From: a phage
Length of the DNA: 64,000 bases
Assembly (NCBI GenBank): GCA_029944565.1
Contig: GCA_029944565.1_4115.1
Reading direction: 5' to 3' (one strand)
How positions within the stretch are numbered: the stretch's first letter is position 1; each line of letters starts with the position of its first letter. The notes beneath the pieces are model-generated. The model worked only from the letters and a program-made list of their open reading frames with translations, was not told where the DNA came from and ran no database searches. Position numbers and translations under genes: made by a program. Below, piece after piece: positions 41,008 through 53,316 of this stretch.

Positions 41008-41403
41008 TTAGATAACCTGGCGGCGTTTACTGTATACTGTTACACGATTACCCTTACGGTCGTGTCGGATCTCTTTCTGGTTGCGTACCAGTTCACTTGG
41101 ACGCTTAAGGTTTGCCAGGTGATCCGCGTGAGTCCAAGCGGTATGGTTTGTCTGTACTTTGATATCAGAATCAGCGATAAATTCATCTTGTGCGTTAAGT
41201 ACTGCCGCCAGTAAATCCGCTCGTTTTAGTTCTGCTGCTGTTAGTACTGGCTCCGGTGAATTCACGATATCAGAGATTTCTTTGAACTGTACGGCCCAGC
41301 GTTGACCTTTCGGTGCATCTTTGCCCATGTCTTTAAATGCTGCTCCTTCCTCGCGTGCAACAATACGGGCAGCTTCACGGGTAGCGTAGAATTTAGTAAT
41401 CAT
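41008..41403 (-). CDS. hypothetical protein (paralog of 52725..52991)
   Basis: shared YATREAARIAAR, FKDMG, DRKGNRVTVY; start MITKFYATRE. Confidence 0.6.
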   Translation of the reverse strand: MITKFYATREAARIVAREEGAAFKDMGKDAPKGQRWAVQFKEISDIVNSPEPVLTAAELKRADLLAAVLNAQDEFIADSDIKVQTNHTAWTHADHLANLKRPSELVRNQKEIRHDRKGNRVTVYSKRRQVI

Positions 41404-41447
41404 GGTATACATCCTATTAGTTGAGTTAGTACTACAAGTTAGAGTCT

Positions 41448-41476
41448 ATTATAAAGTACTATCTGGGCAATGTCAA
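41448..41476 (-). promoter_or_regulatory. early promoter (TTGACA-17-TATAAT)
   Basis: perfect hexamers. Confidence 0.65.
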
Positions 41477-41498
41477 ATAGTACTTTAAATGGATTCTA

Positions 41499-41822
41499 TT
41501 ACATGTCTTTCTTACGTTTTACATCGTTGTATCGAACTGTTATTTCTTTGTTAATCTCTTTTTCGATGCGGTGAATAACTTTTTCTTTCGGGTTGAAACC
41601 TATAACGGTTTCTTTAATGATCTCCAAGCCCGTGTATTCGCCTTGTGTGCCGTAACCGTATGTAAAGGTTTCATGTCCCAGGTCTTCCCAACGATCACCA
41701 ATTAACGCAGACACGTAGCAAGAGTGGTAAGTATTGCCGTGTGAATCAGTCCACCGATTAACTTTAATGTCAAAGGAGGTTACAATTTTCAGTTCTACTT
41801 TCTGGGCAAGGATCATAGCCAT
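41499..41822 (-). CDS. hypothetical protein (paralog of 48459..48782)
   Basis: shared RWTDSxGNTYHSC, FTYGY, DVKRKKD; start MAMILAQ. Confidence 0.6.
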   Translation of the reverse strand: MAMILAQKVELKIVTSFDIKVNRWTDSHGNTYHSCYVSALIGDRWEDLGHETFTYGYGTQGEYTGLEIIKETVIGFNPKEKVIHRIEKEINKEITVRYNDVKRKKDM

Positions 41823-41844
41823 TTTTATTTCTCTCTCTTTGTTA

Positions 41845-41907
41845 GGAGGGGAACCGTTTCCCCTCACTTGATGTAAACTATTATACAGTACTAAGATACT
41901 TTGTCAA
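41845..41907 (-). promoter_or_regulatory. early promoter (TTGACA-16-TATAAT) plus leader hairpin
   Basis: hairpin gaggggaaccgtttcccctc. Confidence 0.7.
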
Positions 41908-41910
41908 TAC

Positions 41911-42093
41911 TTATTTTTTGGAAAGTTTACGCATTAATTCTACGCTTTCTTGTGAACGTTTTGCTACCTGGCAAGCTGCATGGACAGTAAACATTTTTGT
42001 ATAGTCTGACGGTTTGCCACCGAACCGAGCGGCACGTTCACGGGCACTTGGAACTAATACGATTTCTTTCTTACAGATAGTGCATTTAGCCAT
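41911..42093 (-). CDS. small Cys-containing hypothetical protein
   Basis: 60-aa ORF MAKCTICKK... Confidence 0.5.
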   Translation of the reverse strand: MAKCTICKKEIVLVPSARERAARFGGKPSDYTKMFTVHAACQVAKRSQESVELMRKLSKK

Positions 42094-42113
42094 TTTTATT
42101 TCTCTCTCTTTGT

Positions 42114-42176
42114 TAGGAGGGGAACCATTCCCCCTCTCGATGTAAACTATTATACAGTACTAAGATACTTTGTCAA
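42114..42176 (-). promoter_or_regulatory. early promoter (TTGACA-16-TATAAT) plus leader hairpin
   Basis: near-identical copy of 41845..41907. Confidence 0.7.
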
Positions 42177-42179
42177 TAC

Positions 42180-42455
42180 TTAATTATTGTAAATGTCGTG
42201 AATAGTGATAAAGTTTTTACGACCGTAAACCTGCAAATCAATATCAATGTAGTGCTTATCTAGTACATCCTCGACGCTTAACGCGGTGTCGTGGATATCT
42301 TCGTAGAATTGAGGATCTACAATCTTGCTTAAGTCATCCGGCGTTAACTCATCGTTAAGCCGTTGAACCGCCTGGATATCTGCTTCACGTTTCCAGTCTT
42401 CCAGGTTAGTAGTCAGTACTTGTTCGATTTCGTTAGCTGTCAGTAGAATCCGCAT
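42180..42455 (-). CDS. hypothetical protein
   Basis: 91-aa acidic ORF. Confidence 0.6.
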   Translation of the reverse strand: MRILLTANEIEQVLTTNLEDWKREADIQAVQRLNDELTPDDLSKIVDPQFYEDIHDTALSVEDVLDKHYIDIDLQVYGRKNFITIHDIYNN

Positions 42456-42488
42456 TTTAATGTTTCCTTATCAGTGGTTGATGTAAGT

Positions 42489-42516
42489 ATTATACTCGTT
42501 TACTTTCTATTGTCAA
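42489..42516 (-). promoter_or_regulatory. early promoter (TTGACA-16-TATAAT)
   Basis: proximal of three tandem promoters. Confidence 0.6.
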
Positions 42517-42604
42517 ACTATTTTATCAGGGGAGGTTTTCTTATGTCTTACTCCTGGACTACTTAACGGGGTTACTTGTTTCGTTCCCCGTCCTGATGTA
42601 AAAT

Positions 42605-42632
42605 ATTATACTTGATTCTAAGTACAATGCAA
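42605..42632 (-). promoter_or_regulatory. early promoter (TTGCAT-16-TATAAT)
   Basis: second tandem promoter; 70-nt leader with hairpin acgggg-N14-ccccgt. Confidence 0.55.
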
Positions 42633-42662
42633 GTACTTTTTAAAAATAGTTTTCAGTACTAG

Positions 42663-42670
42663 CCACCAGC
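42663..42670. other. Chi octamer (CCACCAGC)
   Basis: exact 8-mer next to conserved element. Confidence 0.5.
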
Positions 42671-42675
42671 AAACA

Positions 42676-42755
42676 ATAGATACATTTATGCACCCTGTGG
42701 GCTGATTTGTTTCTATGCGTATATAATAGCAAAGGGACTGACCGGAGTCAATCCC
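42676..42755 (-). promoter_or_regulatory. conserved intergenic element, copy 3 (promoter TTGACT-17-TATTAT inside hairpin, then core)
   Basis: core at 42676-42704; hairpin gggactgac-cgga-gtcaatccc. Confidence 0.5.
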
Positions 42756-42769
42756 TTTTTCAATTATTT

Positions 42770-42919
42770 TTAAACTTGTTTCGGGTTGCGATAGGTGATA
42801 GCGTTCGGGTACATTTGTTTAATGTTATTCCATGCCTGGTTAACATTGTAACCACTTGAGCGAATCAGTTGGTTGCTACCGACACCTTGAAACACTACTT
42901 CGAATAAGAATTCTTTCAT
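42770..42919 (-). CDS. small hypothetical protein (~49 aa)
   Basis: ATGA-coupled to upstream small ORF; below ORF-track cutoff. Confidence 0.35.
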   Translation of the reverse strand: MKEFLFEVVFQGVGSNQLIRSSGYNVNQAWNNIKQMYPNAITYRNPKQV

Positions 42920-43092
42920 GCTTTCACCTCGCTATCTTCTTTACCTTTACGCCAGGACATTACTAATTGTTCGCGTTGCCATAAGTCGAGTGATACAAAA
43001 AGTTTTGCGGTATCACTTTTAGGATACTCGCCATTAGTACCTAACCGATAAAACAGATCTTTCAGTACTGATAATTCTACTTGGATCATTTT
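42916..43092 (-). CDS. small hypothetical protein (~58 aa)
   Basis: ATGA-coupled on both sides. Confidence 0.35.
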   Translation of the reverse strand, partial: KMIQVELSVLKDLFYRLGTNGEYPKSDTAKLFVSLDLWQREQLVMSWRKGKEDSEVKA

Positions 43093-43178
43093 ATTACTCC
43101 TGATTGCGTTAATACTTCTACTATTGCATGAATGATCATAAGTACAGCTAAAACAATAATCATCGGATTCATTTGCAT
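43089..43178 (-). CDS. hydrophobic micro-protein (29 aa, MQMNPMIIVLAVLMIIHAIVEVL...)
   Basis: SD aaggag 8 nt upstream; single predicted TM helix. Confidence 0.35.
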
Positions 43179-43195
43179 AAGCTGTACTCCTTATA

Positions 43196-43408
43196 TTAAT
43201 CTTTCAGCCAATGATCTTGAATGAATTTTTCACAGAATCCCTGTTTCATGGATTCTAACAGGCGTTCGCGGTGAGCGTTGGCAAATTGCTCAGTACTATG
43301 CGTTACGCCAGGCTGATAACGTGATACCCCATCCGGTCCGATGTATTGAACATCCCACGGTTTTTCATTAGTATCAGACCATTTACGAACGATTAGTTGA
43401 CCTTGCAT
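43196..43408 (-). CDS. hypothetical protein
   Basis: 70-aa ORF. Confidence 0.6.
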   Translation of the reverse strand: MQGQLIVRKWSDTNEKPWDVQYIGPDGVSRYQPGVTHSTEQFANAHRERLLESMKQGFCEKFIQDHWLKD

Positions 43409-43425
43409 TTTTCTTTCCTCTCAGT

Positions 43426-43485
43426 GGGGAGAATCATTTCTCCCCTTCATGTAACTTATTATACAGTACTAGATTACATTGTCAA
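43426..43485 (-). promoter_or_regulatory. early promoter (TTGACA-16-TATAAT) plus leader hairpin
   Basis: hairpin ggggagaa-tcat-ttctcccc. Confidence 0.7.
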
Positions 43486-43491
43486 TAGTTT

Positions 43492-43815
43492 TTATTCACC
43501 TTGTTTGAATTTAGTTTTCTCCATTGATTCCATGATTGCAACCAATACGCCGTGGATCTCGCTTAACGTGGAATCACTAAAAGCATTAATGAATAGTCGA
43601 TCATTCTCACGAATATTTTTAATGTACTTTTCAGCAGTAGTTGCGAATTCATTCAACGGTAGATCAAATGCTTTATCCCATGATGGATGGCGTAATTGTA
43701 ACAGTACTGGATTATCACGATCACCAGGGGAAAACGTACCAGTGATGAAACATACGCCCGGAATACTTTCGAACTGGCAACGGACTTCCTTTGTGATAGT
43801 AGTATGAATGTACAT
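43492..43815 (-). CDS. hypothetical protein
   Basis: 107-aa ORF. Confidence 0.6.
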   Translation of the reverse strand: MYIHTTITKEVRCQFESIPGVCFITGTFSPGDRDNPVLLQLRHPSWDKAFDLPLNEFATTAEKYIKNIRENDRLFINAFSDSTLSEIHGVLVAIMESMEKTKFKQGE

Positions 43816-43842
43816 TTATTGTTATCCTCTATTAAATTAATA

Positions 43843-44031
43843 TTACAGTTTATGAATCAATTCTTTATCTAAGCGATAGCGTACATTATTAATAGTAACG
43901 GCATTGTTTTTAATGCTACGCTGTACAGGTCCACCAGCAATAACAAACGTTGCTTTATTACCCCGAACAATGATAGCACTTCCAGGATTACCGAAATCAT
44001 CTTGTACTAAAATACTTGATAAGTTTTCCAT
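43843..44031 (-). CDS. hypothetical protein
   Basis: 62-aa ORF. Confidence 0.55.
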   Translation of the reverse strand: MENLSSILVQDDFGNPGSAIIVRGNKATFVIAGGPVQRSIKNNAVTINNVRYRLDKELIHKL

Positions 44032-44050
44032 TTTTTATTTCCTCTTAGTA

Positions 44051-44107
44051 GGGGAAGATGTTTCCCCTTGATGTAAGTATTATAACAGTACTGAAAACTA
44101 AATGCAA
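44051..44107 (-). promoter_or_regulatory. early promoter (TTGCAT-17-TATAAT) plus leader hairpin
   Basis: hairpin ggggaa-gatgt-ttcccc. Confidence 0.6.
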
Positions 44108-44110
44108 GTA

Positions 44111-44467
44111 CTATGATAAAATCATGATAGGATATTCACTATCGATCAGTACCTCGAATCCGAAACCTTCGTACCATTCTTTAAGATTGAAGGCGTTATC
44201 TTCTCCTGTATCGCATTCTAAAATGATACAATCTGAATCATCGGCGGCATCAATAAAGGCATTCATTAATTCGTTACCTTCACCATTGCCCCGACTATCA
44301 GGATCAACATAAAGAGAATCAATAAACGCTACACGGTCATAATCAAGATCCGGTGCAATGATTCCACGTTTAACAAACCAGTACTGCAATTGTGCTACTT
44401 TGCCCTGTACTTGATAGCCAGTGATCTCGCCATTGTCAGTAGTACGCGTGATATGTTGTATTCCCAT
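44111..44467 (-). CDS. GNAT-like N-acetyltransferase (tentative)
   Basis: LYVDPDSRGNGEGNELMNAFIDAA resembles GNAT motif A; by eye only. Confidence 0.3.
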   Translation of the reverse strand: MGIQHITRTTDNGEITGYQVQGKVAQLQYWFVKRGIIAPDLDYDRVAFIDSLYVDPDSRGNGEGNELMNAFIDAADDSDCIILECDTGEDNAFNLKEWYEGFGFEVLIDSEYPIMILS

Positions 44468-44496
44468 GATTTCAATCCTCAGTTAAGATATAAAAT

Positions 44497-44524
44497 ATTA
44501 TACACTATCTTTCAGTACTGTCAA
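44497..44524 (-). promoter_or_regulatory. early promoter (TTGACA-16-TATAAT)
   Basis: perfect hexamers, no leader hairpin. Confidence 0.65.
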
Positions 44525-44530
44525 TACTTT

Positions 44531-44788
44531 TTATCTCATAGATCTATGCCAACAATTACGCGGGGGACGTTTAAAAGTACTATCATGATCCTCCTGGCAA
44601 GTTATGCAGTACTTACATCCCTTAACGGCCTGGCGTCGATTCTCAGGGATTATATCGCCGCAGTCGAGGCAATGTATCAGTGATTCTATTTGTGCGTTAA
44701 TTTGCTTTCTAGCGTGGTTAACGGCGGCCTGAATCACTGCGTTAATCTCGTCTTGTTCGGCCCCATCTTTCGCGAATCCTACAGCCAT
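44531..44788 (-). CDS. TraR/DksA-family C4 zinc-finger protein (putative)
   Basis: CLDCG-N17-CKYCITC spacing (CxxC-N17-CxxC). Confidence 0.5.
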   Translation of the reverse strand: MAVGFAKDGAEQDEINAVIQAAVNHARKQINAQIESLIHCLDCGDIIPENRRQAVKGCKYCITCQEDHDSTFKRPPRNCWHRSMR

Positions 44789-45039
44789 TATTTTAACCTC
44801 ATTATAAAAATACTATAGTACTGTAATGCGACAATAATATTACTTGTTCTTACTTTTTCCAATCCACATGATACCACATATTCATCCCCATATGTGCGAA
44901 ACGATACACCATGAAAATTTTTATACACTTGCACTACTAATCATAACCTTTCGTCTAACCAACTGCATAGAATTATACTACTTTACGCAAATTGATCAAG
45001 TATTGATCAGATCATTTTTTGATCAATATTATACAGTTA

Positions 45040-45115
45040 CATTTGTGCACCCTATGGGTTAGTGACGTTCTCGTCTTGATGTAAGTATTATGCCAGTACT
45101 TGATGATATTGTCAA
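45040..45115 (-). promoter_or_regulatory. orphan promoter (TTGACA-17-CATAAT) with conserved transcribed core, no ORF downstream
   Basis: hexamers at 45087-45115; transcript begins acttacatcaagacgagaacgtcactaacccatagggtgc. Confidence 0.5.
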
Positions 45116-45119
45116 TAGT

Positions 45120-45317
45120 TTATTTTAATTTTTTTCTGTCATTGATTAATGCTTTCAGTACTATACTAATGATTTGCAATGATTCATCAATGACTATAAA
45201 ATTATTCTCTTTCATTAGATGATAGTTACCATTGATTGTATATTCTAAGGAGTACTGTTTACGTTTAATTTTTGATAATGTTTCTATTTGTTTTTGTACT
45301 GATTTCATGCTAATCAT
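45120..45317 (-). CDS. hypothetical protein
   Basis: 65-aa ORF. Confidence 0.5.
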   Translation of the reverse strand: MISMKSVQKQIETLSKIKRKQYSLEYTINGNYHLMKENNFIVIDESLQIISIVLKALINDRKKLK

Positions 45318-45393
45318 TGTTAAACGTCCTGTAACGCATTCTAACGAGATAAACGGTTTAGTACTGGCATTGTATAGGGTAATGAATTAAAGC

Positions 45394-45401
45394 CCACCAG
45401 C
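45394..45401. other. Chi octamer (CCACCAGC)
   Basis: exact 8-mer within hairpin agcccaccagcg... Confidence 0.45.
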
Positions 45402-45422
45402 GTTAACCAGTGGGCTATAATC

Positions 45423-45557
45423 TTACATCTTGCGGATAATCTTAACAGTATCTTTCACCGATTTACCGTCTTGCTGGCATTGCTCGATCATTGCGTATTG
45501 TTCTGCTGTAAGATCCTCGCCAGTTTTTGCCAGTACTGCGTCGATGAATGAATCCAG
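45423..45557 (-). CDS. small hypothetical protein (~44 aa)
   Basis: downstream of promoter 45602..45629; below ORF-track cutoff. Confidence 0.4.
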   Translation of the reverse strand: MDSFIDAVLAKTGEDLTAEQYAMIEQCQQDGKSVKDTVKIIRKM

Positions 45558-45601
45558 TGCGATCATTTTGTTTCTCTCTTAGGTTAAGTTAACTACTGTT
45601 T

Positions 45602-45629
45602 ATAAAACTTATTATACAGTACTATCAAA
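45602..45629 (-). promoter_or_regulatory. early promoter (TTGACA-16-TATAAT)
   Basis: perfect hexamers. Confidence 0.65.
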
Positions 45630-45665
45630 CGTTGTCAATATCTTTAATAGTACTGGTAATATATT

Positions 45666-45845
45666 TTAGCGGTAATCGTCGTATGCTTTATTCACCTGGC
45701 GAATGTAACTTTCAAAGGCTTCGTCTACCGTTTCATACTCCCGAACATAATCACCATAGGAAACTACATACATACCTTTTTGATCTTCAAACGACATGAT
45801 GATAGAATCCAGGCCGATGATTTCAGTTTTTGCGATGATAGCCAT
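45666..45845 (-). CDS. hypothetical protein
   Basis: start MAIIAKTEI with SD aaggaa; track ORF extends upstream. Confidence 0.55.
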   Translation of the reverse strand: MAIIAKTEIIGLDSIIMSFEDQKGMYVVSYGDYVREYETVDEAFESYIRQVNKAYDDYR

Positions 45846-45879
45846 TTTTAATTCCTTAGTAGTGTAGTTGATAAAAGTT

Positions 45880-45908
45880 ATTATGCCAGTACTATCAATC
45901 AGTGTCAA
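45880..45908 (-). promoter_or_regulatory. early promoter (TTGACA-17-CATAAT)
   Basis: same subtype as 45087..45115 and 48826..48854. Confidence 0.55.
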
Positions 45909-45928
45909 TAGTACTGTGATAATATTTT

Positions 45929-46141
45929 TTAGTTAATAATAGTCAGTGTAAAATTGTAATCCCCTGCCTGGTATAGTACTTTATCGCCGAACGTTCCAAC
46001 ACGTTTCATATTGCAATAGATACCCATAACACTTTTTACATCTTTGATATTCCGAACGCCAGTAATATCCTTGTTTAAATGATCGTGATCAGAAAATAAA
46101 ACTTGTTTTGCATTTTTCAGTACAGTGCAGATATTAGCCAT
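45929..46141 (-). CDS. hypothetical protein
   Basis: 70-aa ORF. Confidence 0.6.
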   Translation of the reverse strand: MANICTVLKNAKQVLFSDHDHLNKDITGVRNIKDVKSVMGIYCNMKRVGTFGDKVLYQAGDYNFTLTIIN

Positions 46142-46161
46142 TTTGTTTTCTCTCTGTTAGT

Positions 46162-46221
46162 GGGGAGAATCATTTCTCCCCTTCATGTAACTTATTATAC
46201 AGTACTATAATCTATTGTCAA
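46162..46221 (-). promoter_or_regulatory. early promoter (TTGACA-16-TATAAT) plus leader hairpin
   Basis: hairpin ggggagaa-tcat-ttctcccc. Confidence 0.7.
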
Positions 46222-46235
46222 ACTATTTTTTTATA

Positions 46236-46577
46236 TTATTCGAAATCTTCTGGACCGGACTGATAATCATCTTCACCGTATGCACTTTCTAACTTCTCGC
46301 CAGTGTGATCATCAGTTAGTGAATCATCCTCATAATTCACGTCTACGCCTACAATGTAAAACTGGCTATCGTCTGGATCATTGAAATTAATTTTCTGAAT
46401 GTTTACAATAACTGTATTGATGCCCAGGACACAGCCATCAGCCGTTACAAAGTACTGATAGTTTTCACAACCGCCTGAATTGAAACCGTAATTGATTTCG
46501 GCCCGACCATCATTTAAACGCAGTGCCTGGGCGATGATTTCGTTTTCAAAGTTAGATTGAGCAATTGAGATAGTCAT
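46236..46577 (-). CDS. hypothetical acidic protein
   Basis: 113-aa ORF, Asp/Glu-rich C-terminus. Confidence 0.6.
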   Translation of the reverse strand: MTISIAQSNFENEIIAQALRLNDGRAEINYGFNSGGCENYQYFVTADGCVLGINTVIVNIQKINFNDPDDSQFYIVGVDVNYEDDSLTDDHTGEKLESAYGEDDYQSGPEDFE

Positions 46578-46597
46578 GATTCGTTTCCTTATTACTA

Positions 46598-46656: not shown

Positions 46657-46709
46657 GTACTTTTTATCAAATACTTTAAAATAGTTTTCAGTACTCAAAC
46701 ATTATACAA

Positions 46710-46792: not shown

Positions 46793-46802
46793 CTTTTTTC
46801 AT

Positions 46803-47254: not shown

Positions 47255-47257
47255 GTA

Positions 47258-47779: not shown

Positions 47780-47784
47780 ATTAA

Positions 47785-48057
47785 TTAACCTTTTAAGTAC
47801 TGGCTTAAGTAGTCTTTTTGATCTTCGGTGATTGCAGTCATCTTCCCTAGTACTGGATTGATGATATAATCCCCTGTAACGTCCTGTAACGCATTCTCAG
47901 GCGGTTTAACGGCTGGGGTAGCCATAGCCATTGCCTGGACTTGTTCGACGCTGTAACGCTCATAAAGGCGGCATTCTTCCGGTGTTAACATAGCATCAGT
48001 ACGCTTCATCGGTTTAATGATGCTTTCGATCTCATTCAGTACTTGATTAACGTTCAT
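47785..48057 (-). CDS. hypothetical protein
   Basis: 90-aa ORF. Confidence 0.55.
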   Translation of the reverse strand: MNVNQVLNEIESIIKPMKRTDAMLTPEECRLYERYSVEQVQAMAMATPAVKPPENALQDVTGDYIINPVLGKMTAITEDQKDYLSQYLKG

Positions 48058-48108
48058 GGTATAATCCCCAATATAAGCGGCCTAAATCGACCGCTAACGA
48101 TGTTTTGA

Positions 48109-48378
48109 TTAATAGGTGTAAGGTTGACGCTCAAACAATGATTGTACGCTGTACGCCCCGCTAATGGGCTTCGCTGGCAAATCAATTTTATATTGTTCAC
48201 GCTTAAAGATAATAAAACGGCAATTGTTTTTAACATCAAAATTGATTGAACGTTCCAGGAGTTTTCCATCGTGCACAAATACAAGATAACCGCTTGGTAC
48301 TTGTTTTGTAGAACTGGTTGCAACCATAGACCGACGAACATGTGTACCTGCATCGATTAAAGTACTGATATTTTTCAT
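48109..48378 (-). CDS. hypothetical protein
   Basis: 89-aa ORF with SD gagga; preferred over overlapping ORF 48054..48353. Confidence 0.5.
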   Translation of the reverse strand: MKNISTLIDAGTHVRRSMVATSSTKQVPSGYLVFVHDGKLLERSINFDVKNNCRFIIFKREQYKIDLPAKPISGAYSVQSLFERQPYTY

Positions 48379-48458
48379 TTTACTATCCTCTTAAGTTGAT
48401 TTAATTTCTTTCCCCTATGCAGACACTGTATCAAAGTATCTGCATAAAGTAAAGCTAA

Positions 48459-48782
48459 TTAAAGATCTTTTTTACGTTTTACATCCTGTACAGTACAATG
48501 CAACGGGATAGACAAATCATTACACAAACGAGTAAGGGAGGTTTCAACAGTATCAAGCCCGTCTACTGATTCCTTTAAGAGATCAAACGCCGTTTGTTGA
48601 TATGCATCTTCATAGCCATAAGTAAATGATTCAACCGCCAGATCATTCAAACCGTTATCCAGTTCAACGCTTACATGACAAGAATGATAAGTATTGCCAT
48701 ATGAATCAGTCCAACGTTTACCGTCAACATTGATTGCATGGATTGCAGCCAGGGAAACGGTATTGATGATAGTTTTAGCCAT
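48459..48782 (-). CDS. hypothetical protein (paralog of 41499..41822)
   Basis: shared RWTDSYGNTYHSC, FTYGY, DVKRKKD. Confidence 0.6.
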   Translation of the reverse strand: MAKTIINTVSLAAIHAINVDGKRWTDSYGNTYHSCHVSVELDNGLNDLAVESFTYGYEDAYQQTAFDLLKESVDGLDTVETSLTRLCNDLSIPLHCTVQDVKRKKDL

Positions 48783-48825
48783 TTTAGTATTCCTTAAATT
48801 AATATGTGTCGTCTTGATAAAATCT

Positions 48826-48854
48826 ATTATGCCAGTACTATCAAACTATGTCAA
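48826..48854 (-). promoter_or_regulatory. early promoter (TTGACA-17-CATAAT)
   Basis: hexamers on minus strand. Confidence 0.55.
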
Positions 48855-48873
48855 TAGTACTGTGATAATATTT

Positions 48874-49086
48874 TTACTTACTTTCTTTCGCTGCTTTATA
48901 TGTTGCCACTGCCATAACCACATCAGCACGAACAAAGTTTTTAACCGTGTCACTGTAATAATTGATCGCATCATCTATATCTGCGAACGTCCGATACATA
49001 CCGCACCAAGATACTTTATAACCTTCTTTCACTTCTGCCAGTTTAACGATAGTCTTGTTAACTTTGATTTTAGTAATGATAGCCAT
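48874..49086 (-). CDS. hypothetical protein
   Basis: start MAIITKIKV; track ORF extended through leader. Confidence 0.55.
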   Translation of the reverse strand: MAIITKIKVNKTIVKLAEVKEGYKVSWCGMYRTFADIDDAINYYSDTVKNFVRADVVMAVATYKAAKESK

Positions 49087-49105
49087 TTTAGTTTCCTCAT
49101 TATCA

Positions 49106-49164
49106 GGGAGAACCATTTCTCCCCTTGATGTAATGTATTATACTTTATTCGATTTACTTTGCAA
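49106..49164 (-). promoter_or_regulatory. early promoter (TTGCAA-16-TATAAT) plus leader hairpin
   Basis: hairpin gggagaaccatttctcccc. Confidence 0.65.
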
Positions 49165-49173
49165 GTACTTTTT

Positions 49174-49401
49174 TTAATTTAATTCATCCAGGCAAAGGAT
49201 ACGCTCAACGCCCAAATCAGTTAAACTAATCGACGGCACTTGATAGGTTTCAATGTATGCTACACTTGCCCACTGACCGAACTCATTAACGGCCCAGGTA
49301 TTCATTGCATTTTGCAATTCCGCACCTGCCTTGTTAGTAATGACTGCAACTACTTGTTCGTTGCCAGTAGTACCAGATACGCGAGTAATGATAATAGCCA
49401 T
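49174..49401 (-). CDS. hypothetical protein
   Basis: start MAIIITRVSG. Confidence 0.55.
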   Translation of the reverse strand: MAIIITRVSGTTGNEQVVAVITNKAGAELQNAMNTWAVNEFGQWASVAYIETYQVPSISLTDLGVERILCLDELN

Positions 49402-49421
49402 TGTTTTGATTCCTTTGATTT

Positions 49422-49484
49422 GGAAGGAGAACCGTTTCCCCCTCTCGATGTAAAACATTATACGCTAATCTCTTAATCGTGCAA
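49422..49484 (-). promoter_or_regulatory. early promoter (TTGCAC-16-TATAAT) plus leader hairpin
   Basis: hexamers and hairpin ggagaaccgtttcccc. Confidence 0.6.
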
Positions 49485-49549
49485 GTACTTTTTATTACTT
49501 TTTGCAAAATACTTTAAACGCTCTCAATCGCATTCTAACGACCTTAACG

Positions 49550-49557
49550 CCACCAGC
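49550..49557. other. Chi octamer (CCACCAGC)
   Basis: exact 8-mer; partner in opposite orientation at 49612. Confidence 0.5.
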
Positions 49558-49611
49558 TAGGGCGATGTATCAGATAATCAGTTTAATGCGTTAGAATCGA
49601 TTCTAGGCGGT

Positions 49612-49619
49612 GCTGGTGG
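49612..49619. other. Chi octamer (GCTGGTGG)
   Basis: exact 8-mer. Confidence 0.5.
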
Positions 49620-49635
49620 ACTGGAATACTACAGA

Positions 49636-49666
49636 CACAAAAAAGCCCACTGTTTAAGGTGGGCTA
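49636..49666 (-). terminator. rho-independent terminator
   Basis: hairpin agcccac-tgtttaag-gtgggct followed by UUUUUUGUGU on minus strand. Confidence 0.65.
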
Positions 49667-49686
49667 GTGATTCAGTACTTTAATTG

Positions 49687-50169
49687 TTATGCTTCAACTT
49701 TGCGATGAGCTTCGATCCATTCCTCGCGAGTCATACCGCTTTCTTTGATAGCGTCCAGTACTACCGCAATGCAGTTACCGCGTACAGGAATCATATGTTC
49801 TTCCCCGTTATCAAGTACTACAGTAACACGTTCTTGAATCCATTTTTTAGGTTTAGATTCTGGCTTATCTTCACCATACTTAACCGCCAGGGCTTTATGT
49901 GCCATTTCTACAACTACTTCCAGATCCAATCCAGCCACCGCCGCCTGGATACTTTCGATTGTTGCTTGCAGTTCGGCTTCACGGGCTTTTTTCTGTTCTT
50001 CCAGTTCTGCTACCTTTTTGGCTTGCAGTTCTTTAGCTTCACTGTACGCAATGTTAAAATTGTTGCGTACTGCTTTCATGGTATCGTTATCCAGGTCAGC
50101 CAACAATTCAGCAGCAATAACAGTATCGTTTGAAATCAGTGCTTTCAGGAATGATTTTACATTAGCCAT
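49687..50169 (-). CDS. hypothetical protein with central coiled-coil-like segment
   Basis: start MANVKSFLKAL with SD gagga; Ala/Glu/Lys-rich heptad-like middle. Confidence 0.6.
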   Translation of the reverse strand: MANVKSFLKALISNDTVIAAELLADLDNDTMKAVRNNFNIAYSEAKELQAKKVAELEEQKKAREAELQATIESIQAAVAGLDLEVVVEMAHKALAVKYGEDKPESKPKKWIQERVTVVLDNGEEHMIPVRGNCIAVVLDAIKESGMTREEWIEAHRKVEA

Positions 50170-50292
50170 TTTATAAATCCTCAATTAAAGTTTAGTTTAC
50201 GTTTATTAGTGTATCAAAGTTTTATCGACGTGTCCAGTTTTTCGTTCGACTTACTGGCGGTCTACTTAGTGCTCCCCGTCTTGATGTAATAC

Positions 50293-50320
50293 ATTCTACG
50301 CCTTTTTGTGGTAATGTCAA
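50293..50320 (-). promoter_or_regulatory. promoter (TTGACA-16-TAGAAT) with ~110-nt leader
   Basis: leader starts ...catcaagacgg... like other conserved-core transcripts. Confidence 0.5.
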
Positions 50321-50369
50321 CTACTATTTTAAAACTATTTTTAAAGTATGCAGTACTACGATAATACAA

Positions 50370-50401
50370 AAACAAAAAAGCCCACTGTTTAAGGTGGGCT
50401 A
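50370..50401 (-). terminator. rho-independent terminator (identical copy of 49636..49666)
   Basis: same hairpin agcccactgtttaaggtgggct plus U-run. Confidence 0.65.
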
Positions 50402-50417
50402 GTGATTCAGTACTATA

Positions 50418-50717
50418 TTATAAACAGTTAATTACTCCGGTGTGCGTTACTTTCTCAGTATCCATAACCGTGACCGATCCACGCTTAGTACTTACATCGT
50501 AATAAATTGTCGTGCTACCTTTTTCGTCTTCTTCATGGAACGGGCCGCTTTTAAATGCTTCTGGCTGGATCTCTAAATCCTTTAAAACAATCTCGCCAGT
50601 ACTTTCATCTGTCATCGCAACAGTGCACTGAATGAATTTTTCACTACTTACATCTAACGACGCATTAACAGCGAAAGAGGAAACAGATAAAGCCAGGGCG
50701 ATGATTGCAATTTTCAT
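50418..50717 (-). CDS. secreted/periplasmic protein (predicted signal peptide)
   Basis: N-terminus MKIAIIALALSVSSFAVNA with AxA-type cleavage site. Confidence 0.55.
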   Translation of the reverse strand: MKIAIIALALSVSSFAVNASLDVSSEKFIQCTVAMTDESTGEIVLKDLEIQPEAFKSGPFHEEDEKGSTTIYYDVSTKRGSVTVMDTEKVTHTGVINCL

Positions 50718-50728
50718 TTGATTATCCT

Positions 50729-50796
50729 TAGTTACCAGGGGGAACCGCTCCCCCGTGCGATGTAAAATATTGTACAGTACTAAAAACTAATTGCAA
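50729..50796 (-). promoter_or_regulatory. early promoter (TTGCAA-16-TACAAT) plus leader hairpin
   Basis: hairpin ggggga-accgc-tccccc. Confidence 0.6.
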
Positions 50797-50801
50797 GTAC
50801 T

Positions 50802-51038
50802 TTATGATTTTTTATAAAACATTTCGGCAGTAATATTTTTACCCGTTGGTTGTACTTTATCCAGAATTTTTTGATGCCCTGGCCGTCCAAATGAATATGA
50901 TCCGTAAACCGTAAACCAGTAGTTACCCTCAGTGTTTACATGTACAGCACAATAGGGAACGCCCCGCGATTCATCACCAATAAAGTGTGATACCGTTCCC
51001 GTTACATTAGCAGACGTTGATTTGATTTGTTCAAGCAT
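50802..51038 (-). CDS. hypothetical protein
   Basis: 78-aa ORF. Confidence 0.55.
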   Translation of the reverse strand: MLEQIKSTSANVTGTVSHFIGDESRGVPYCAVHVNTEGNYWFTVYGSYSFGRPGHQKILDKVQPTGKNITAEMFYKKS

Positions 51039-51058
51039 TTTCTTATTCCTTAGTTACC

Positions 51059-51114
51059 AGGGGGAACCGCTCCCCCTATGCAAAACATTATACGCGTTTA
51101 AAAACTAATAGCAA
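51059..51114 (-). promoter_or_regulatory. early promoter (TTGCTA-16-TATAAT) plus leader hairpin
   Basis: duplicate of the 50729..50796 block. Confidence 0.6.
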
Positions 51115-51147
51115 GTATTTTAATAAAAAGTATTTGAAAAATAATTG

Positions 51148-51176
51148 TTGACAACTGCATCCAGTACTGGCATAAT
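51148..51176 (+). promoter_or_regulatory. plus-strand promoter (TTGACA-17-CATAAT)
   Basis: hexamers read on plus strand; drives conserved-core transcript. Confidence 0.55.
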
Positions 51177-51182
51177 TACTAC

Positions 51183-51275
51183 ATCAAGACGAAACAGTCA
51201 CTAACCCACCGGGTGCCGAGATCCGTCTATTAAATGATTCAGTACTTAACAATAAAGGGGATCAATCGATCCCCT
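51183..51275 (+). ncRNA. candidate small RNA carrying the conserved promoter-proximal core
   Basis: no ORF; GAC-gaaaca-GTC hairpin then ACTAACCCACCGGGTGC; ends at hairpin ggggatc-aatc-gatcccc. Confidence 0.35.
51248..51275 (-). terminator. candidate rho-independent terminator
   Basis: same hairpin read on minus strand is followed by UUUAUUGUU after stop of 51281..51502. Confidence 0.45.
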
Positions 51276-51280
51276 ATGTA

Positions 51281-51502
51281 TTACTTAGTAAGGTATAAAC
51301 AGAAGTCACCTTTATTTGCTACGCCGCCAGTGTAACGCGATGAATAGTTAGAAACGTCCTGGACTTCTGCTATTACCAGTGTATCATCATTCAATTCGTC
51401 GCAGAAGCAAACGGCTGGATCTTTTACGCCGATCTTGTCGGCATGTTCCCGCATAGATTTAACCAGTGCTTCCAGTTGAGAAAGAGTAGTGATATTAGCC
51501 AT
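51281..51502 (-). CDS. hypothetical protein
   Basis: start MANITTLSQ; track ORF extended through leader. Confidence 0.55.
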   Translation of the reverse strand: MANITTLSQLEALVKSMREHADKIGVKDPAVCFCDELNDDTLVIAEVQDVSNYSSRYTGGVANKGDFCLYLTK

Positions 51503-51521
51503 TGTATTTTCCTCATTACCA

Positions 51522-51580
51522 GGGAGAACCATTTCTCCCCTCTATGTAAACTATTATACAGTACTGAAAACTAATTGCAA
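51522..51580 (-). promoter_or_regulatory. early promoter (TTGCAA-16-TATAAT) plus leader hairpin
   Basis: hairpin gggagaaccatttctcccc. Confidence 0.65.
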
Positions 51581-51586
51581 GTACTT

Positions 51587-51775
51587 TTAATTAAATTCCA
51601 TAAAATCATTCTCAACGTGCACAACAATTTGATTGTTTTTAAAGTCCGCAGCGAACTCGATGCAATCATAAACCGCTTTTTGTGTTACAATGCTATGAGT
51701 ACCAATCGGATTAATAGGGGATTGAATTGTTTCAATCTCGTTCCCTTGCTCATTAACAATTAAAATATTAAACAT
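51587..51775 (-). CDS. hypothetical protein
   Basis: 62-aa ORF; SD aggag. Confidence 0.5.
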   Translation of the reverse strand: MFNILIVNEQGNEIETIQSPINPIGTHSIVTQKAVYDCIEFAADFKNNQIVVHVENDFMEFN

Positions 51776-51813
51776 CGCTGTTACTCCTGGGTAGTGTTAA
51801 CTCGATATAAAGT

Positions 51814-51841
51814 ATTATACGCCTTTATTGCTTAGTGTCCA
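51814..51841 (-). promoter_or_regulatory. early promoter (TGGACA-16-TATAAT)
   Basis: hexamers on minus strand. Confidence 0.5.
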
Positions 51842-52038
51842 GTACTTTTTAAAACATATTCATAAACACTACGCACATCATTGATCATCGCCTGGCGGTT
51901 AGCAGGTAACGCACCAGGATCGCCACTATCCCAGGCATTGATAAAACTCCCCAAATCATGAAAGATTTTATTCTGTAAGCCGATTAACTGCAATTCTTTT
52001 TCTTCAAGCTCTTTGATACGGTCAATTAAAAGACTCAT
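51832..52038 (-). CDS. hypothetical protein
   Basis: start MSLLIDRIKE with RBS ctgaggattatcta identical to next gene. Confidence 0.5.
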   Translation of the reverse strand: MSLLIDRIKELEEKELQLIGLQNKIFHDLGSFINAWDSGDPGALPANRQAMINDVRSVYEYVLKSTGH

Positions 52039-52055
52039 TAGATAATCCTCAGTAC

Positions 52056-52337
52056 TTAATTGTAAGATCCGCAACGGTTACAATAGTGCCCGTCTTCCTC
52101 GTCAACGAATTGACCGACGAAATTATCTACTTTCTCTTTGAGATTCTGATAATTGTTTTCAACTTCCTTTAGACGTTCCTGGTAGTATTCCAGGGCTTGC
52201 ACATACGCCGCCTCAGCCGTTTTCGCTCTTAAGGCTAAATTCATGCCACGCGTTTCATCGTACATCCAAAAGCCATCGGTGCACTCACTGATTGACAATG
52301 ATTTGGTTAACACTTTATAGTCAATTACTTTGCTCAT
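52056..52337 (-). CDS. hypothetical protein
   Basis: start MSKVIDYKV; C-terminal CNRCGSYN. Confidence 0.5.
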   Translation of the reverse strand: MSKVIDYKVLTKSLSISECTDGFWMYDETRGMNLALRAKTAEAAYVQALEYYQERLKEVENNYQNLKEKVDNFVGQFVDEEDGHYCNRCGSYN

Positions 52338-52393
52338 TAGATAATCCTCAGTAAAGGCGGGAACCACACCCGCCATTGATTCAGTACTGAATG

Positions 52394-52633
52394 TTACATT
52401 CCAACCATTGCAGCACGGATCGCCGTAGTGCTATACTTGAATCCGTCCGGTGTTGTAGTAGTACCGTTGGCTTTTAATCTGCGGTACATACATTGGGCCG
52501 CAATATCTTTAGTTTTACATTGTGCGATGCAACTTTGAGCAAGCCGATATAATGACTCACCGTTATTAATCCACAATGAAACATTCCAATGAGTTTTGTT
52601 TTTGTGCCCGTTGTAAGTTTTAGTAGTAGCCAT
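52394..52633 (-). CDS. hypothetical protein (paralog of 53077..53316)
   Basis: shared GHKNKTxWNVSLWINN and TPDGFKYSTTAIRAAMVGM. Confidence 0.6.
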   Translation of the reverse strand: MATTKTYNGHKNKTHWNVSLWINNGESLYRLAQSCIAQCKTKDIAAQCMYRRLKANGTTTTPDGFKYSTTAIRAAMVGM

Positions 52634-52655
52634 TTTTAAATCCTCGTTTAATTGA

Positions 52656-52717
52656 GCGGGAGAACCATTCCCCCGCCTCGATATAAAGTATTATACGCTT
52701 TTAAACTTAGTTTGCAA
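52656..52717 (-). promoter_or_regulatory. early promoter (TTGCAA-16-TATAAT) plus leader hairpin
   Basis: hairpin gcgggagaaccattcccccgc. Confidence 0.65.
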
Positions 52718-52724
52718 GTACTTT

Positions 52725-52991
52725 TTATTCAAGTACTGCGATCTTTTTAATACGGTACACGGTCACGCGGTTGCCCTTTCGGTCGAGCTTTATTTCTACC
52801 ACTCGACGCGATACACTATCAGGACTTTTCAACGCCGCTAACCAGTACTGTAATGATCTGGCGGTACTACGCTTTACAATGGCCCAACGTTTACCACGTT
52901 CCGATTGTACGCCCATATCTTTAAACGTTGCCCCGTCCTGGCGTGCGGCGATCCGAGCTTGTTCACGCGTCGCAAAATACTTAATATTCAT
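52725..52991 (-). CDS. hypothetical protein (paralog of 41008..41403)
   Basis: shared FATREQARIAAR and DRKGNRVTVY; start MNIKYFATRE. Confidence 0.6.
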   Translation of the reverse strand: MNIKYFATREQARIAARQDGATFKDMGVQSERGKRWAIVKRSTARSLQYWLAALKSPDSVSRRVVEIKLDRKGNRVTVYRIKKIAVLE

Positions 52992-53022
52992 GCTGTTGCC
53001 CTTATCGTTGGTGTATGAATAA

Positions 53023-53060
53023 AACACTATTATAAAGTACTATCGCAAAAAATGATAGTA
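53023..53060. promoter_or_regulatory. perfect palindrome AGTACTATC-N9-GATAGTACT next to a -10-like TATAAT
   Basis: 9-bp inverted arms upstream of 52725..52991; candidate operator. Confidence 0.35.
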
Positions 53061-53076
53061 CTTTAAATCTATTCTA

Positions 53077-53316
53077 TTACATTCCAACCATTGCAGCACG
53101 GATCGCCGTAGTACTGTACTTGAATCCGTCCGGCGTTTTATCTTGTCCAGTCTGTTCTAAAAATAGCATCATATGACGGGCCGCATCATTGCGATTAGTG
53201 TTAGCGGCAATAAAGTCCTGGGCCAACCGGTATAATGATTCATCGTTATTAATCCAAAGGCTTACATTCCATTGAGTTTTGTTTTTGTGACCTAAGAACA
53301 TTTTTGATTTAGCCAT
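53077..53316 (-). CDS. hypothetical protein (paralog of 52394..52633)
   Basis: identical C-terminal 19 aa. Confidence 0.6.
   Translation of the reverse strand: MAKSKMFLGHKNKTQWNVSLWINNDESLYRLAQDFIAANTNRNDAARHMMLFLEQTGQDKTPDGFKYSTTAIRAAMVGM

Follow-up and report, generated by a model that had tools for sequence, protein, structure and literature searches.

The locus and its terminal-repeat setting

The stretch analysed here (NCBI GenBank assembly GCA_029944565.1, contig GCA_029944565.1_4115.1; 64,000 nucleotides, referred to throughout as the window) contains a cluster of small phage genes interspersed with copies of a composite block that combines a promoter, a hairpin and a ribosome-binding site. 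We refer to this block as a cassette. With positions 41,000–53,400 as the query, megablast returned 178 phage records, the best of which are Escherichia phages of the genus Asteriusvirus (PBECO4, 99.3% DNA identity over 80% of the query; CRJP21, 96.3%; 121Q, 88.7%). Judged by these matches, the window is part of an Asteriusvirus jumbo coliphage of the PBECO4/121Q group, whose relatives are Rak2-like jumbo myoviruses of ∼350 kb. An SPO1-like phage of Bacillus or another Gram-positive host, which the look of the promoters and the low G+C might suggest, is rejected on the same matches. The minus strand carries genes up to ∼55.2 kb, and the G/C skew switches sign near 56 kb.

In the relative fEgEco12, record positions 1–20,993 form a direct terminal repeat (DTR) of 20,993 bp, as determined by PhageTerm and restriction digests (PMC13070987). 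The limits of the corresponding region in the window were obtained by carrying this repeat across the alignment blocks (Table 1), and the early cluster therefore sits in the terminal repeat. The Ec-M-J record has 'Direct Terminal Repeats' annotated at the homologous site. The DTR-equivalent region holds ∼51 small minus-strand genes, most with a cassette copy in front, and every copy of the cassette. We call these genes early because of two relatives: in PA5oct the DTR genes are strongly transcribed early (PMC7318152), and in CBB, RpoD-like promoters carrying an UP-like element are grouped in the presumed early region and reach into the repeat (PMC5259590). The proteins of the region that were tested against PHROG and Pfam are without known function, and Rfam 15 gave no match at or above the gathering score anywhere in the window.

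A family of promoter–hairpin cassettes

The terminal-repeat region contains a multi-copy composite cassette that is confined to this region and carries a covarying hairpin at a fixed place. Repeat finding placed the blocks in families of 10–17 copies, and a profile made from 21 copies matched 34 cassettes in the window, all lying within 36,096–55,156; 33 are on the minus strand. Near-perfect sigma-70 matches on the minus strand number 22 within 37,008–55,146 versus 1 elsewhere in the window.

A typical cassette begins with an A-rich tract (AAAAGTAC-type A-rich DNA) that ends in AGTAC. The promoter that follows has a −35 box of TTGACA or TTGCAA, a spacer that often holds CAGTACTG and that is 16 nt long in the main promoter class, and a −10 box of TATAAT. 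After the −10 box comes a conserved start region, GTTTTACATCAAG or a near variant, then a G-rich/C-rich hairpin of 8–9 bp (for example, GGGGAGAA-UAG-UUCUCCCC), then 18–22 nt with a GGA/GAG-type Shine–Dalgarno (SD) site, and finally the ATG. The stem begins 12 nt past the −10 box (range 8–14), the hairpin is 17–23 nt long and the end of the stem lies 14–23 nt from the start codon. A second promoter class, with a 17-nt spacer, a TAYTAT −10 box and no hairpin, includes one of the paired blocks considered below (40390/40666). Across the family, likeness is concentrated at the −35 and −10 boxes, in the start region and along the G/C run of the stem. The cores of neighbouring cassettes resemble each other slightly more than those of cassettes that are not adjacent (0.666 versus 0.630; permutation p 0.024).

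The cassettes also bear on gene calling. ATGs inside the hairpin loop or the promoter were taken as starts of open reading frames (ORFs), for example at 47206, 49458, 51532 and 53830; the true starts are likely to lie further in, at 47176, 49401, 51502 and 53782.

Cassettes flank genes that vary among close relatives

An earlier sequence-only reading of this stretch had pointed to four pairs of promoter–leader blocks duplicated nearly verbatim (38501/38995, 41845/42114, 40390/40666 and 50729/51059) and to three protein pairs sharing long identical stretches, and had concluded that early genes were amplified as promoter–gene cassettes. The similarities themselves are sound, in that the protein pairs are significant in blastp and all four block pairs align locally. 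'Nearly verbatim' describes two of the block pairs, 38466–38565 versus 38962–39058 (91/100 identical, or 91%) and 41816–41924 versus 42087–42193 (101/109, or 93%), but overstates the other two, which are ∼82% identical (40327–40418 versus 40607–40694, 77/95; 50715–50804 versus 51036–51122, 76/92). Long identical stretches are likewise found in one protein pair, 52394/53077, but not in the other two. The genes that stand behind the four twin-block pairs show no mutual homology by blastp at E ≤ 100, with at most one 12-aa match (E = 2).

We aligned seven relatives (PBECO4, CRJP21, 121Q, ELP-22, fEgEco12, Ec-M-J and BF17) to 35.5–55.5 kb of the window. In this synteny comparison, which the sequence-only reading had proposed as a check, the genomes are collinear, but with gene-sized gaps at which single genes are present, absent or moved. 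In a gene-by-gene identity table, 16 of the 51 genes vary among the seven relatives. All four twin blocks adjoin a gene whose presence or place differs among these relatives (Table 1). The five relatives that lack g38566 carry one chimeric cassette in its place; where the gene is present, its alleles are 94% and 78% identical and the flanking genes 98–100%, the 78% allele being that of Ec-M-J, beside a neighbour that is 100% identical. PBECO4 and ELP-22 alone have a homologue of g47258 with 70% identity or more, and the junction in CRJP21 has an overlap of 61 nt. A 1.3-kb two-gene segment of PBECO4, ELP-22, Ec-M-J and BF17 is missing from the window, with its junction in the cassette before g52394. 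Several single genes occur in two allele classes between conserved neighbours, as illustrated by g45929, whose identities to the seven relatives are 100/69/93/69/100/69/97%.

The junctions themselves lie within cassettes. Of the 51 junctions, 28 have neighbouring alignment blocks whose ends overlap on one side by more than 10 nt (45–103 nt in clear cases), which means that a single cassette of one genome corresponds to both cassettes of the other. Three-way alignments for four indel genes show that the lone cassette of the relative joins the upstream flank of the upstream copy to the downstream flank of its downstream partner and changes over within the shared core, as recombination within the repeat predicts. 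Intervals comprising a cassette and its leader make up 17% of the region and contain 28 of the 41 distinct breakpoints (binomial p 5e-13). Single genes of this region are thus present or absent, replaced or displaced between close relatives, with the junctions inside cassettes. On these alignments, the near-verbatim twin blocks are read as cassettes flanking mobile genes and not as traces of amplification.

Three paralog pairs of differing history

All-against-all blastp over every ORF in the window characterizes the three protein pairs as follows. The 41008/52725 pair (phrog_8127) is 35% identical over 125 aa (E 6e-17), with a longest identical run of 10 aa; the 41499/48459 pair (phrog_6246) is 37% identical over 107 aa (E 4e-25), with a longest run of 7 aa; and the 52394/53077 pair (phrog_871, equivalent to Pfam DUF7249) is 66% identical over 79 aa (E 1.6e-34), with a longest run of 19 aa. 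The likely start codons of three paralog ORFs fall within the ORFs as they were originally listed (41822 rather than 41867; 52991 rather than 53027, a GTG). Both copies of the 41008/52725 and 41499/48459 pairs are present in 7/7 relatives at a within-pair identity of 35–39%, and by this measure the two pairs are old duplicates.

The 52394/53077 pair is the only one with the same cassette before both genes. Gene and cassette taken together align over 355 positions with 74% DNA identity, and their 28-nt promoter cores do not differ. The g53077 protein is 90% identical to a protein of phage A73 (Vequintavirinae, 142 kb), however, and the g52394 protein has 89.9% identity to one encoded by a 150-kb coliphage. 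Because the two proteins are ∼90% identical to those of coliphages from other lineages and only 66% identical to each other, separate acquisition or exchange explains the pair no less well than duplication in place would.

The leader hairpin

The window contains 23 leader hairpins, 19 of them distinct, with predicted folding energies of −10.6 to −15.9 kcal/mol and 13 G-U pairs. The 5′ arm is G-rich and the 3′ arm C-rich, and the inner part of the stem, GGGG-R-GAA ... TTC-Y-CCCC, is well conserved within the genome. We gathered 66 distinct hairpin variants from the window and nine loci, from which a gapless covariation set of 42 distinct rows was made with ten bases on each side of the loop joined by a constant TTTT linker. 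The native loops were swapped for TTTT because MAFFT misregistered 3-nt against 4-nt loops. In this set, 91.0% of the cells of a nine-pair helix are paired versus 77.5 ± 1.1% in shuffles, 55 cells are changed on both sides versus 17.0 ± 4.4, and the covariation score is 0.475 versus 0.205. None of 500 shuffles was as high as observed for paired cells, double changes or covariation score, and slid controls were clearly lower. Compensatory types (G-C, A-U, C-G and U-A) occur at three or four stem positions.

Wobble pairs in the same alignment are strand-specific (23 G-U versus 1 U-G), and folding is better on the transcribed-sense strand than on its complement for 17 hairpins, with the reverse for 5. 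The G-U excess and the better folding of the sense strand suggest that the hairpin acts as RNA rather than as DNA. In RaK2, the same promoter and start region are followed by a hairpin at the same place with unrelated stems (GGGGATACA-TAG-TGTATCCC and GGGAATGAA-TGA-TTCATTCCC). The 8 nt past the stem contain a mean of 1.7 T and a maximum of 3, and a terminator scan flagged none of the leader hairpins, versus seven other minus-strand sites in the region at which canonical T-tailed terminators are found (39490, 40985, 42758, 46796, 49665, 50400 and 51275). The lack of a T-rich tail argues against the leader hairpins being classical intrinsic terminators.

Cassettes in other phages

A 93-nt cassette query matched 69 phage records. 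Asteriusvirus genomes have 10–23 matching places each, the higher counts coming mostly from records that seem to hold both terminal repeats. The query also matches RaK2/K64-1, Salmonella 7t3/SE_PL, a Yersinia jumbo phage and coliphages of ∼140–150 kb, as well as Klebsiella fENko-Kae01, where the match lies inside the annotated DTR. Three cassettes of A73 (OP778609.1, 71,607–77,691) are near-identical to window copies, hairpin included. The A73 cassettes are 84–86% identical over 85–380 nt and are accompanied by the adjacent genes. In that phage, 6–7 adjacent genes are homologous to window genes at 44–90% amino acid identity and one more at 29%, in a different order. These matches suggest a pool of early-gene cassettes that may be shared across unrelated coliphage lineages.

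Relation to known cassette systems

The closest parallel is provided by the PeSL (promoter-early stem-loop) elements, which are mobile regulatory cassettes of the T4-type phages RB49/phi1, T4/PST and KVP40/nt-1 (Arbiol et al. 2010, PMC2839356; Comeau et al. 2014, PMC4122927). PeSLs cluster in hyperplastic regions, border indels and replacements of genes without known function, and recombine among themselves (PMC2839356, PMC4122927). The window cassettes have the features by which PeSLs are recognized, namely a promoter, a stable G/C stem-loop, an SD site with a start codon, clustered copies and the location of junctions. Both are built of an upstream AT-rich stretch, an early sigma-70 promoter close to consensus, a Gn-loop-Cn stem-loop in which G-T pairs occur, and an SD site ahead of the ATG, and both occur in many copies in a plastic region of small genes of unknown function. 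In both, the genes flanked by the copies differ among close relatives by insertion, deletion, replacement or displacement, and the crossovers fall within the cassette.

The differences are equally clear. The cassettes described here belong to Asteriusvirus/Rak2-like jumbo phages and Vequintavirinae, not to T4-type phages, and the window cluster lies in a long direct terminal repeat. The stem-loop is fixed at ∼12 nt past the −10 box, beyond the expected start and so within its own 5′ leader, whereas in PST the PeSL stem-loop lies upstream of the promoter; and the window hairpins have no terminator tail. The cassette query returned no blastn-level similarity to the RB49/phi1 cassettes. PeSLs are also credited with terminator or attenuator activity on upstream transcription and with circular DNA (mini-circles) formed in infected cells when neighbouring elements recombine. 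In the open-access papers searched, PeSL-type cassettes were described only for T4-type phages, by their discoverers, together with one mention in a cyanophage paper, and none of those consulted on CBB, RaK2, PA5oct, fEgEco12 or rV5 mentions a promoter–hairpin cassette. On the sequence features just listed, our results extend a known PeSL-type mechanism to the terminal-repeat early region of jumbo coliphages.

Two further comparisons concern the setting and the mode of exchange. The host-takeover module of Bacillus phage SPO1 reportedly lies in the terminal redundancy (for example, Stewart et al. 1998, Virology), and the pre-early region of coliphage T5 lies in a terminal repeat. These modules comprise dense small early genes in a long terminal repeat, with many strong host-sigma promoters and ribosome sites, and are the first DNA that host polymerase can reach. 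The window region resembles them in its dense small early genes, its long terminal repeat and its strong host-sigma promoters, but has no sequence relationship to them. We know of no description of a repeated leader hairpin or of cassette-mediated shuffling of single genes for the SPO1 and T5 modules. Integron gene cassettes offer a different likeness, which the PeSL authors also draw: single promoter-proximal genes come and go as whole units at repeated boundary elements. Unlike integrons, the window has neither an integrase nor an attC site, its units each carry a promoter of their own and the exchange is apparently by homologous recombination between the repeated cassettes.

Interpretation and alternatives

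The reading that we favour, with a probability of about 0.75, is that the blocks are portable promoter–hairpin–ribosome-site cassettes and that recombination between copies adds, removes and swaps single early genes. Host sigma-70 polymerase would fire the cassette promoters at once after DNA entry, and the hairpin, judging by the spacing, would form part of the 5′ leader of the mRNA made from its own cassette. The ∼34 cassettes, which share 60–100 nt of similarity, would also serve as crossover points. Recombination between two of them would delete the intervening gene and the reverse event would insert one, and exchange with a co-infecting phage would replace or move single genes. Such exchanges would proceed by homologous recombination between cassettes, either within a genome or between co-infecting phages.

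Several considerations weigh against this reading. We infer the activity of the promoters, the early expression of the genes and the presence of the hairpin in RNA from sequence and from relatives; recombination is likewise deduced from comparison of genomes, and each indel may be an insertion or a deletion. Gene-sized indels must end in intergenic DNA, much of which is cassette, and the enrichment of breakpoints is weaker on an intergenic-only null (14/19 versus 38% expected; p 0.002, with crude gene calls). Copies within a genome and orthologues share ancestry, so that the counts represent non-independent events. In the covariation set, the arms were taken from the individual fold of each sequence, and the rows are in many cases related, both of which favour pairing. 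Finally, a start 6–8 nt past the −10 box would leave 5–7 unpaired nt before the stem, which exceeds the 2–4 unpaired nt usually quoted for full 5′-end protection in E. coli; a role for the hairpin as a stabilizer is therefore uncertain, and simple 5′ protection is weakened.

Recent tandem amplification of early promoter–gene units, with the paralogs arising by duplication within the genome, was the explanation offered by the sequence-only reading. It gains something from the 52394/53077 pair, which resembles a duplicated unit in its 74% identity and identical promoter cores, from the slightly greater likeness of adjacent cassette cores and from the large tandem paralog arrays just outside the region, at 27–35 kb and 55.8–59.7 kb. 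An amplified unit would combine a shared promoter block with homologous coding sequence at comparable identity, however, and only 52394/53077 does so. The genes behind the four twin blocks have no detectable similarity, two of the three paralog pairs lack a common cassette type, and the paralogs are 35–66% identical, with two of the pairs kept as pairs in 7/7 relatives. Even for DUF7249, both members are closer to proteins of 142–150-kb coliphages of other lineages than to each other, which already indicates that the two window copies are not sisters. We therefore regard amplification as very improbable. The early cluster is made of promoter–gene units and genuine homologue pairs exist, as had been claimed; amplification of these units is mostly unsupported, since twin cassettes precede unrelated genes, and the paralogs are either of long standing or were acquired separately. 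The earlier interpretation is thus partly supported, with units that appear to be shuffled rather than amplified. It is just as improbable that the blocks are alike merely through convergence on sigma-70, leader and ribosome-site consensus sequences, taking no part in rearrangement, and that the indels simply end between genes. Such convergence would explain why likeness sits in functional positions (−35, −10, start region and the G/C run of the stem), and it draws on the moderate significance of the intergenic-only breakpoint test. It does not account for twins that are 91–93% identical over 100–109 nt, including spacer, loop and flanks without known constraint, for the 28 of 51 junctions at which one cassette aligns to both of the other genome, for lone cassettes in relatives that are chimeras of two flanking copies, or for the A73 cassettes that match window copies together with their adjacent genes.

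The remaining alternatives concern the hairpin. It might not be a 5′-leader element but an attenuator or terminator of read-through from the upstream gene, as in the PeSLs of RB49/phi1, where a Gn-loop-Cn stem-loop of RB49 cut expression of downstream lacZ as strongly as the rrnB T1 terminator (PMC2839356); the window stems are of the same G-run/C-run type and are located between genes. Here, however, the hairpin is downstream of its own promoter, so that a strong terminator would also stop its own transcript; the stems lack a T-rich tail, and separate canonical T-tailed terminators are present at seven sites in the region. We consider this unlikely. Somewhat less likely still is that the inverted repeat functions as DNA, either as an operator for a dimeric phage or host repressor of the early promoters or as a cruciform that promotes recombination. 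The conservation of the inner stem within the genome, its position at about +5 to +25, where a bound protein would block promoter clearance, and the AGTACT palindromes in or beside the promoters, which resemble protein-binding sites, are all compatible with an operator. An operator is harder to reconcile with 19 distinct stems in one genome and compensatory changes at 3–4 positions, with G-U pairs that outnumber U-G pairs by 23 to 1 and that become A-C mismatches on the other strand, and with the conservation in RaK2 of position but not of sequence.

Within the cassette reading, the role of the hairpin itself can be assigned only tentatively. That it stabilizes or insulates each short mRNA is our leading candidate, though at somewhat below even odds; an attenuator role, as proposed for PeSLs, is unlikely, and a role as a protein-binding site on RNA or DNA is no likelier. 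A model for stabilization is the 5′-terminal stem-loop of the ompA 5′ untranslated region (UTR), reportedly described by Emory, Bouvet and Belasco (1992) as an mRNA stabilizer of E. coli. The window hairpin resembles it as a stable hairpin near the mRNA 5′ end and upstream of the ribosome site, but differs in that unpaired nucleotides probably precede the stem and in that its stabilizing role is putative.

An excess of AGTACT

The palindromic hexamer AGTACT occurs 259 times in the window versus 18.8 ± 4.3 in shuffles, an excess of 12–14-fold; it stands at 12 times the expectation from base composition, and the next palindromic hexamer at just 3 times. The stretches 20,070–27,770 and 30,210–35,380 are free of it. 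The favoured 8-mer around the site is CAGTACTG, and 58% of the sites in the first 55.5 kb are coding, in all three frames. Relative to 121Q, 87.7% of AGTACT sites are kept, versus 64.8% for other hexamers. Observed/expected ratios are 17–21 in all seven Asteriusvirus loci and RaK2 and 2 in the Vequintavirinae locus. The hexamer is found in nearly every early promoter, either abutting the −35 box or just before the −10 box. We did not find AGTACT enrichment in Rak2-like or rV5-like phages described in the open-access papers searched.

These observations can be joined in a speculative and rather improbable proposal, in which AGTACT would be the recognition site of a phage protein, the leader hairpin an RNA signal for a phage factor, and the cassette–gene units actively moved within and between phage families. 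If this were true, the AGTACT protein might mark self DNA, shut off early promoters or nick DNA to start recombination, and the cassettes would be a lineage-specific system of control and mobility, more than passive patches of homology.

Other features of the region

The positions of the cassettes, promoters, terminators, paralogs and variable genes are given in Table 1. In the UUCG-loop terminator at 39463–39490, the stem holds TTGACT and a TATTAT follows 17 nt later, so that terminator and promoter overlap.

Table 1. Features of the early-gene region, in window coordinates
Feature	Position	Strand	Details
Early-gene region equivalent to the ∼21-kb Asteriusvirus DTR	∼35,251–55,519	minus	mapped via fEgEco12 alignment blocks
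Cassette	36096–36173	minus	hairpin 36124–36103; profile
Cassette	36971–37045	minus	hairpin 36995–36975; profile
Cassette	37616–37685	minus	hairpin 37637–37619; profile
Cassette	37941–38020	minus	hairpin 37970–37950; profile
Cassette	38489–38569	minus	promoter 38559–38532, hairpin 38519–38501; before g38206; downstream member of twin 38501/38995
Cassette	38983–39061	minus	promoter 39053–39026, hairpin 39013–38995; before g38566; upstream member of twin 38501/38995
Cassette	39296–39371	minus	hairpin 39320–39299; profile
Second-class promoter	40390–40418	minus	TTGACA-N17-TACTAT, no hairpin, SD GGGGAAAA; before g40118; twin 40390/40666
Second-class promoter	40666–40694	minus	TTGACA-N17-TATTAT; before g40419; twin 40390/40666
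Cassette	41837–41915	minus	promoter 41907–41880, hairpin 41865–41846; downstream member of twin 41845/42114
Cassette	42107–42184	minus	promoter 42176–42149, hairpin 42136–42117; upstream member of twin 41845/42114
Consensus promoter	42477–42526	minus	without G-rich hairpin
Cassette	42580–42642	minus	atypical, longer leader hairpin; profile
Cassette	43420–43494	minus	hairpin 43445–43426; profile
Cassette	44046–44114	minus	hairpin 44068–44050; profile
Consensus promoter	44475–44532	minus	without G-rich hairpin
Consensus promoter	45582–45648	minus	without G-rich hairpin
Cassette	46152–46231	minus	hairpin 46181–46162; profile
Cassette	46586–46665	minus	hairpin 46615–46597; profile
Cassette	47185–47264	minus	promoter 47254–47227, hairpin 47214–47195
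Cassette	47515–47587	minus	promoter 47579–47552, hairpin 47541–47522
Cassette	49095–49174	minus	hairpin 49123–49106; near-identical copy in Vequintavirinae phage A73
Cassette	49414–49493	minus	hairpin 49444–49423; profile
Cassette	50726–50805	minus	promoter 50796–50769, hairpin 50754–50738; before g50418; twin 50729/51059
Cassette	51047–51124	minus	promoter 51114–51087, hairpin 51078–51058; before g50802; twin 50729/51059
Cassette	51510–51589	minus	hairpin 51540–51521; profile
Cassette	52648–52726	minus	hairpin 52677–52655; before g52394; junction of 1.3-kb two-gene indel
Cassette	53327–53406	minus	hairpin 53357–53337; before g53077; 28-nt promoter core identical to that at 52717
Cassette	53787–53865	minus	hairpin 53815–53797; profile
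Outermost consensus promoter	55084–55156	minus	∼370 nt inside inferred genome end
UUCG-loop intrinsic terminator	39463–39490	minus	sister copies 42731–42758, 46769–46796
Indel gene g38566, 135 aa, phrog_1915	38566–38973	minus	between 91%-identical cassettes; absent in 5/7 relatives
Indel gene g40419, 72 aa	40419–40637	minus	between second-class promoter blocks; absent in PBECO4, ELP-22; junction overlap 61–62 nt
Indel gene g41911, 60 aa, phrog_8738	41911–42093	minus	between twin cassettes; absent in 121Q; junction overlap 103 nt
Indel gene g44111, 118 aa, acetyltransferase annotation in relatives	44111–44467	minus	bounded by promoters 44046–44114 and 44475–44532; absent in PBECO4, BF17
Indel gene g47258, 80 aa	47258–47500	minus	between cassettes 47185–47264 and 47515–47587
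Gene g50802, 78 aa, phrog_9227	50802–51038	minus	between twin cassettes; in all relatives; ∼1 kb away in 121Q
Paralog A1, 134 aa, phrog_8127	41008–41412	minus	own hairpin-less promoter 41476–41448
Paralog A2, 88 aa from ATG 52991	52725–52991	minus	no own promoter; downstream of g53077
Paralog B1, 107 aa, phrog_6246	41499–41822	minus	behind cassette 41837–41915
Paralog B2, 107 aa, phrog_6246	48459–48782	minus	promoter TTGACA-N17-CATAAT at 48854–48826, no G-rich hairpin
Paralog C1, 79 aa, DUF7249/phrog_871	52394–52633	minus	in 4/7 relatives
Paralog C2, 79 aa, DUF7249	53077–53316	minus	in 7/7 relatives

A separate seven-copy CCCACNGGGTG element has the core AGCCCAC-N-GGGTGC, with GTATCTA or CGTCTA 6–8 nt later. 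Its copies lie on the minus strand near 36668, 39418, 42691 and 46724 and on the plus strand near 51205, 54193 and 54409, always just after a −10-like box, and the element is also present in RaK2. The minus-strand copies come after a UUCG-loop terminator with a TTGACT −35-like box in its stem, again an overlap of terminator and promoter. A larger RNA structure was considered for this element and rejected, as RNAalifold gives only an invariant CCC/GGG mini-hairpin of 3–4 bp with no covariation. On the plus strand at 51,148–51,280, a promoter-like TTGACA-N17-CATAAT with a TG is followed by a copy of the CCCACNGGGTG element and then by a palindromic hairpin at 51,256–51,275; this arrangement could produce a short transcript that converges on the early genes.

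Close to the outer end of the inferred repeat (∼800 nt inside it), 54603–54746 consists of imperfect 8-nt periodic repeats (TCTAGCCG-like) without long ORFs, and PBECO4 has ∼2 kb without an annotated gene at this place. The repeats could be a site tied to packaging, the genome end or replication. Paralog arrays lie on both sides of the region. Adjoining the inner repeat boundary, the minus strand at 27,250–35,200 carries a tandem array of ∼30 small paralogs (66–96 aa, 25–55% mutual identity) that lie close together, with stop codons overlapping start codons, and that have no cassettes. Beyond the repeat end, the minus-strand ORFs at 55,790–59,950 form an array of ∼15 paralogs of 59–81 aa. Elsewhere in the window, a paralog family of genes of ∼100–170 aa occupies 16,200–20,300, and three adjacent plus-strand paralogs of 388–436 aa, with 27–68% mutual identity, occupy 60,262–63,830; the 121Q homologues of the latter carry the annotation of RCC1-like putative DNA condensation proteins.

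Implications

For annotation, recognition of the cassettes corrects a habit of ORF callers, by which several early genes are begun at an ATG that falls in the promoter or in the loop of the hairpin. In phage engineering, the cassettes would represent compact, apparently strong and self-contained expression units that also act as natural sites for swapping genes. For the biology of these phages, recombination between portable cassettes would explain gene-by-gene change in the host-directed early set of giant coliphages.

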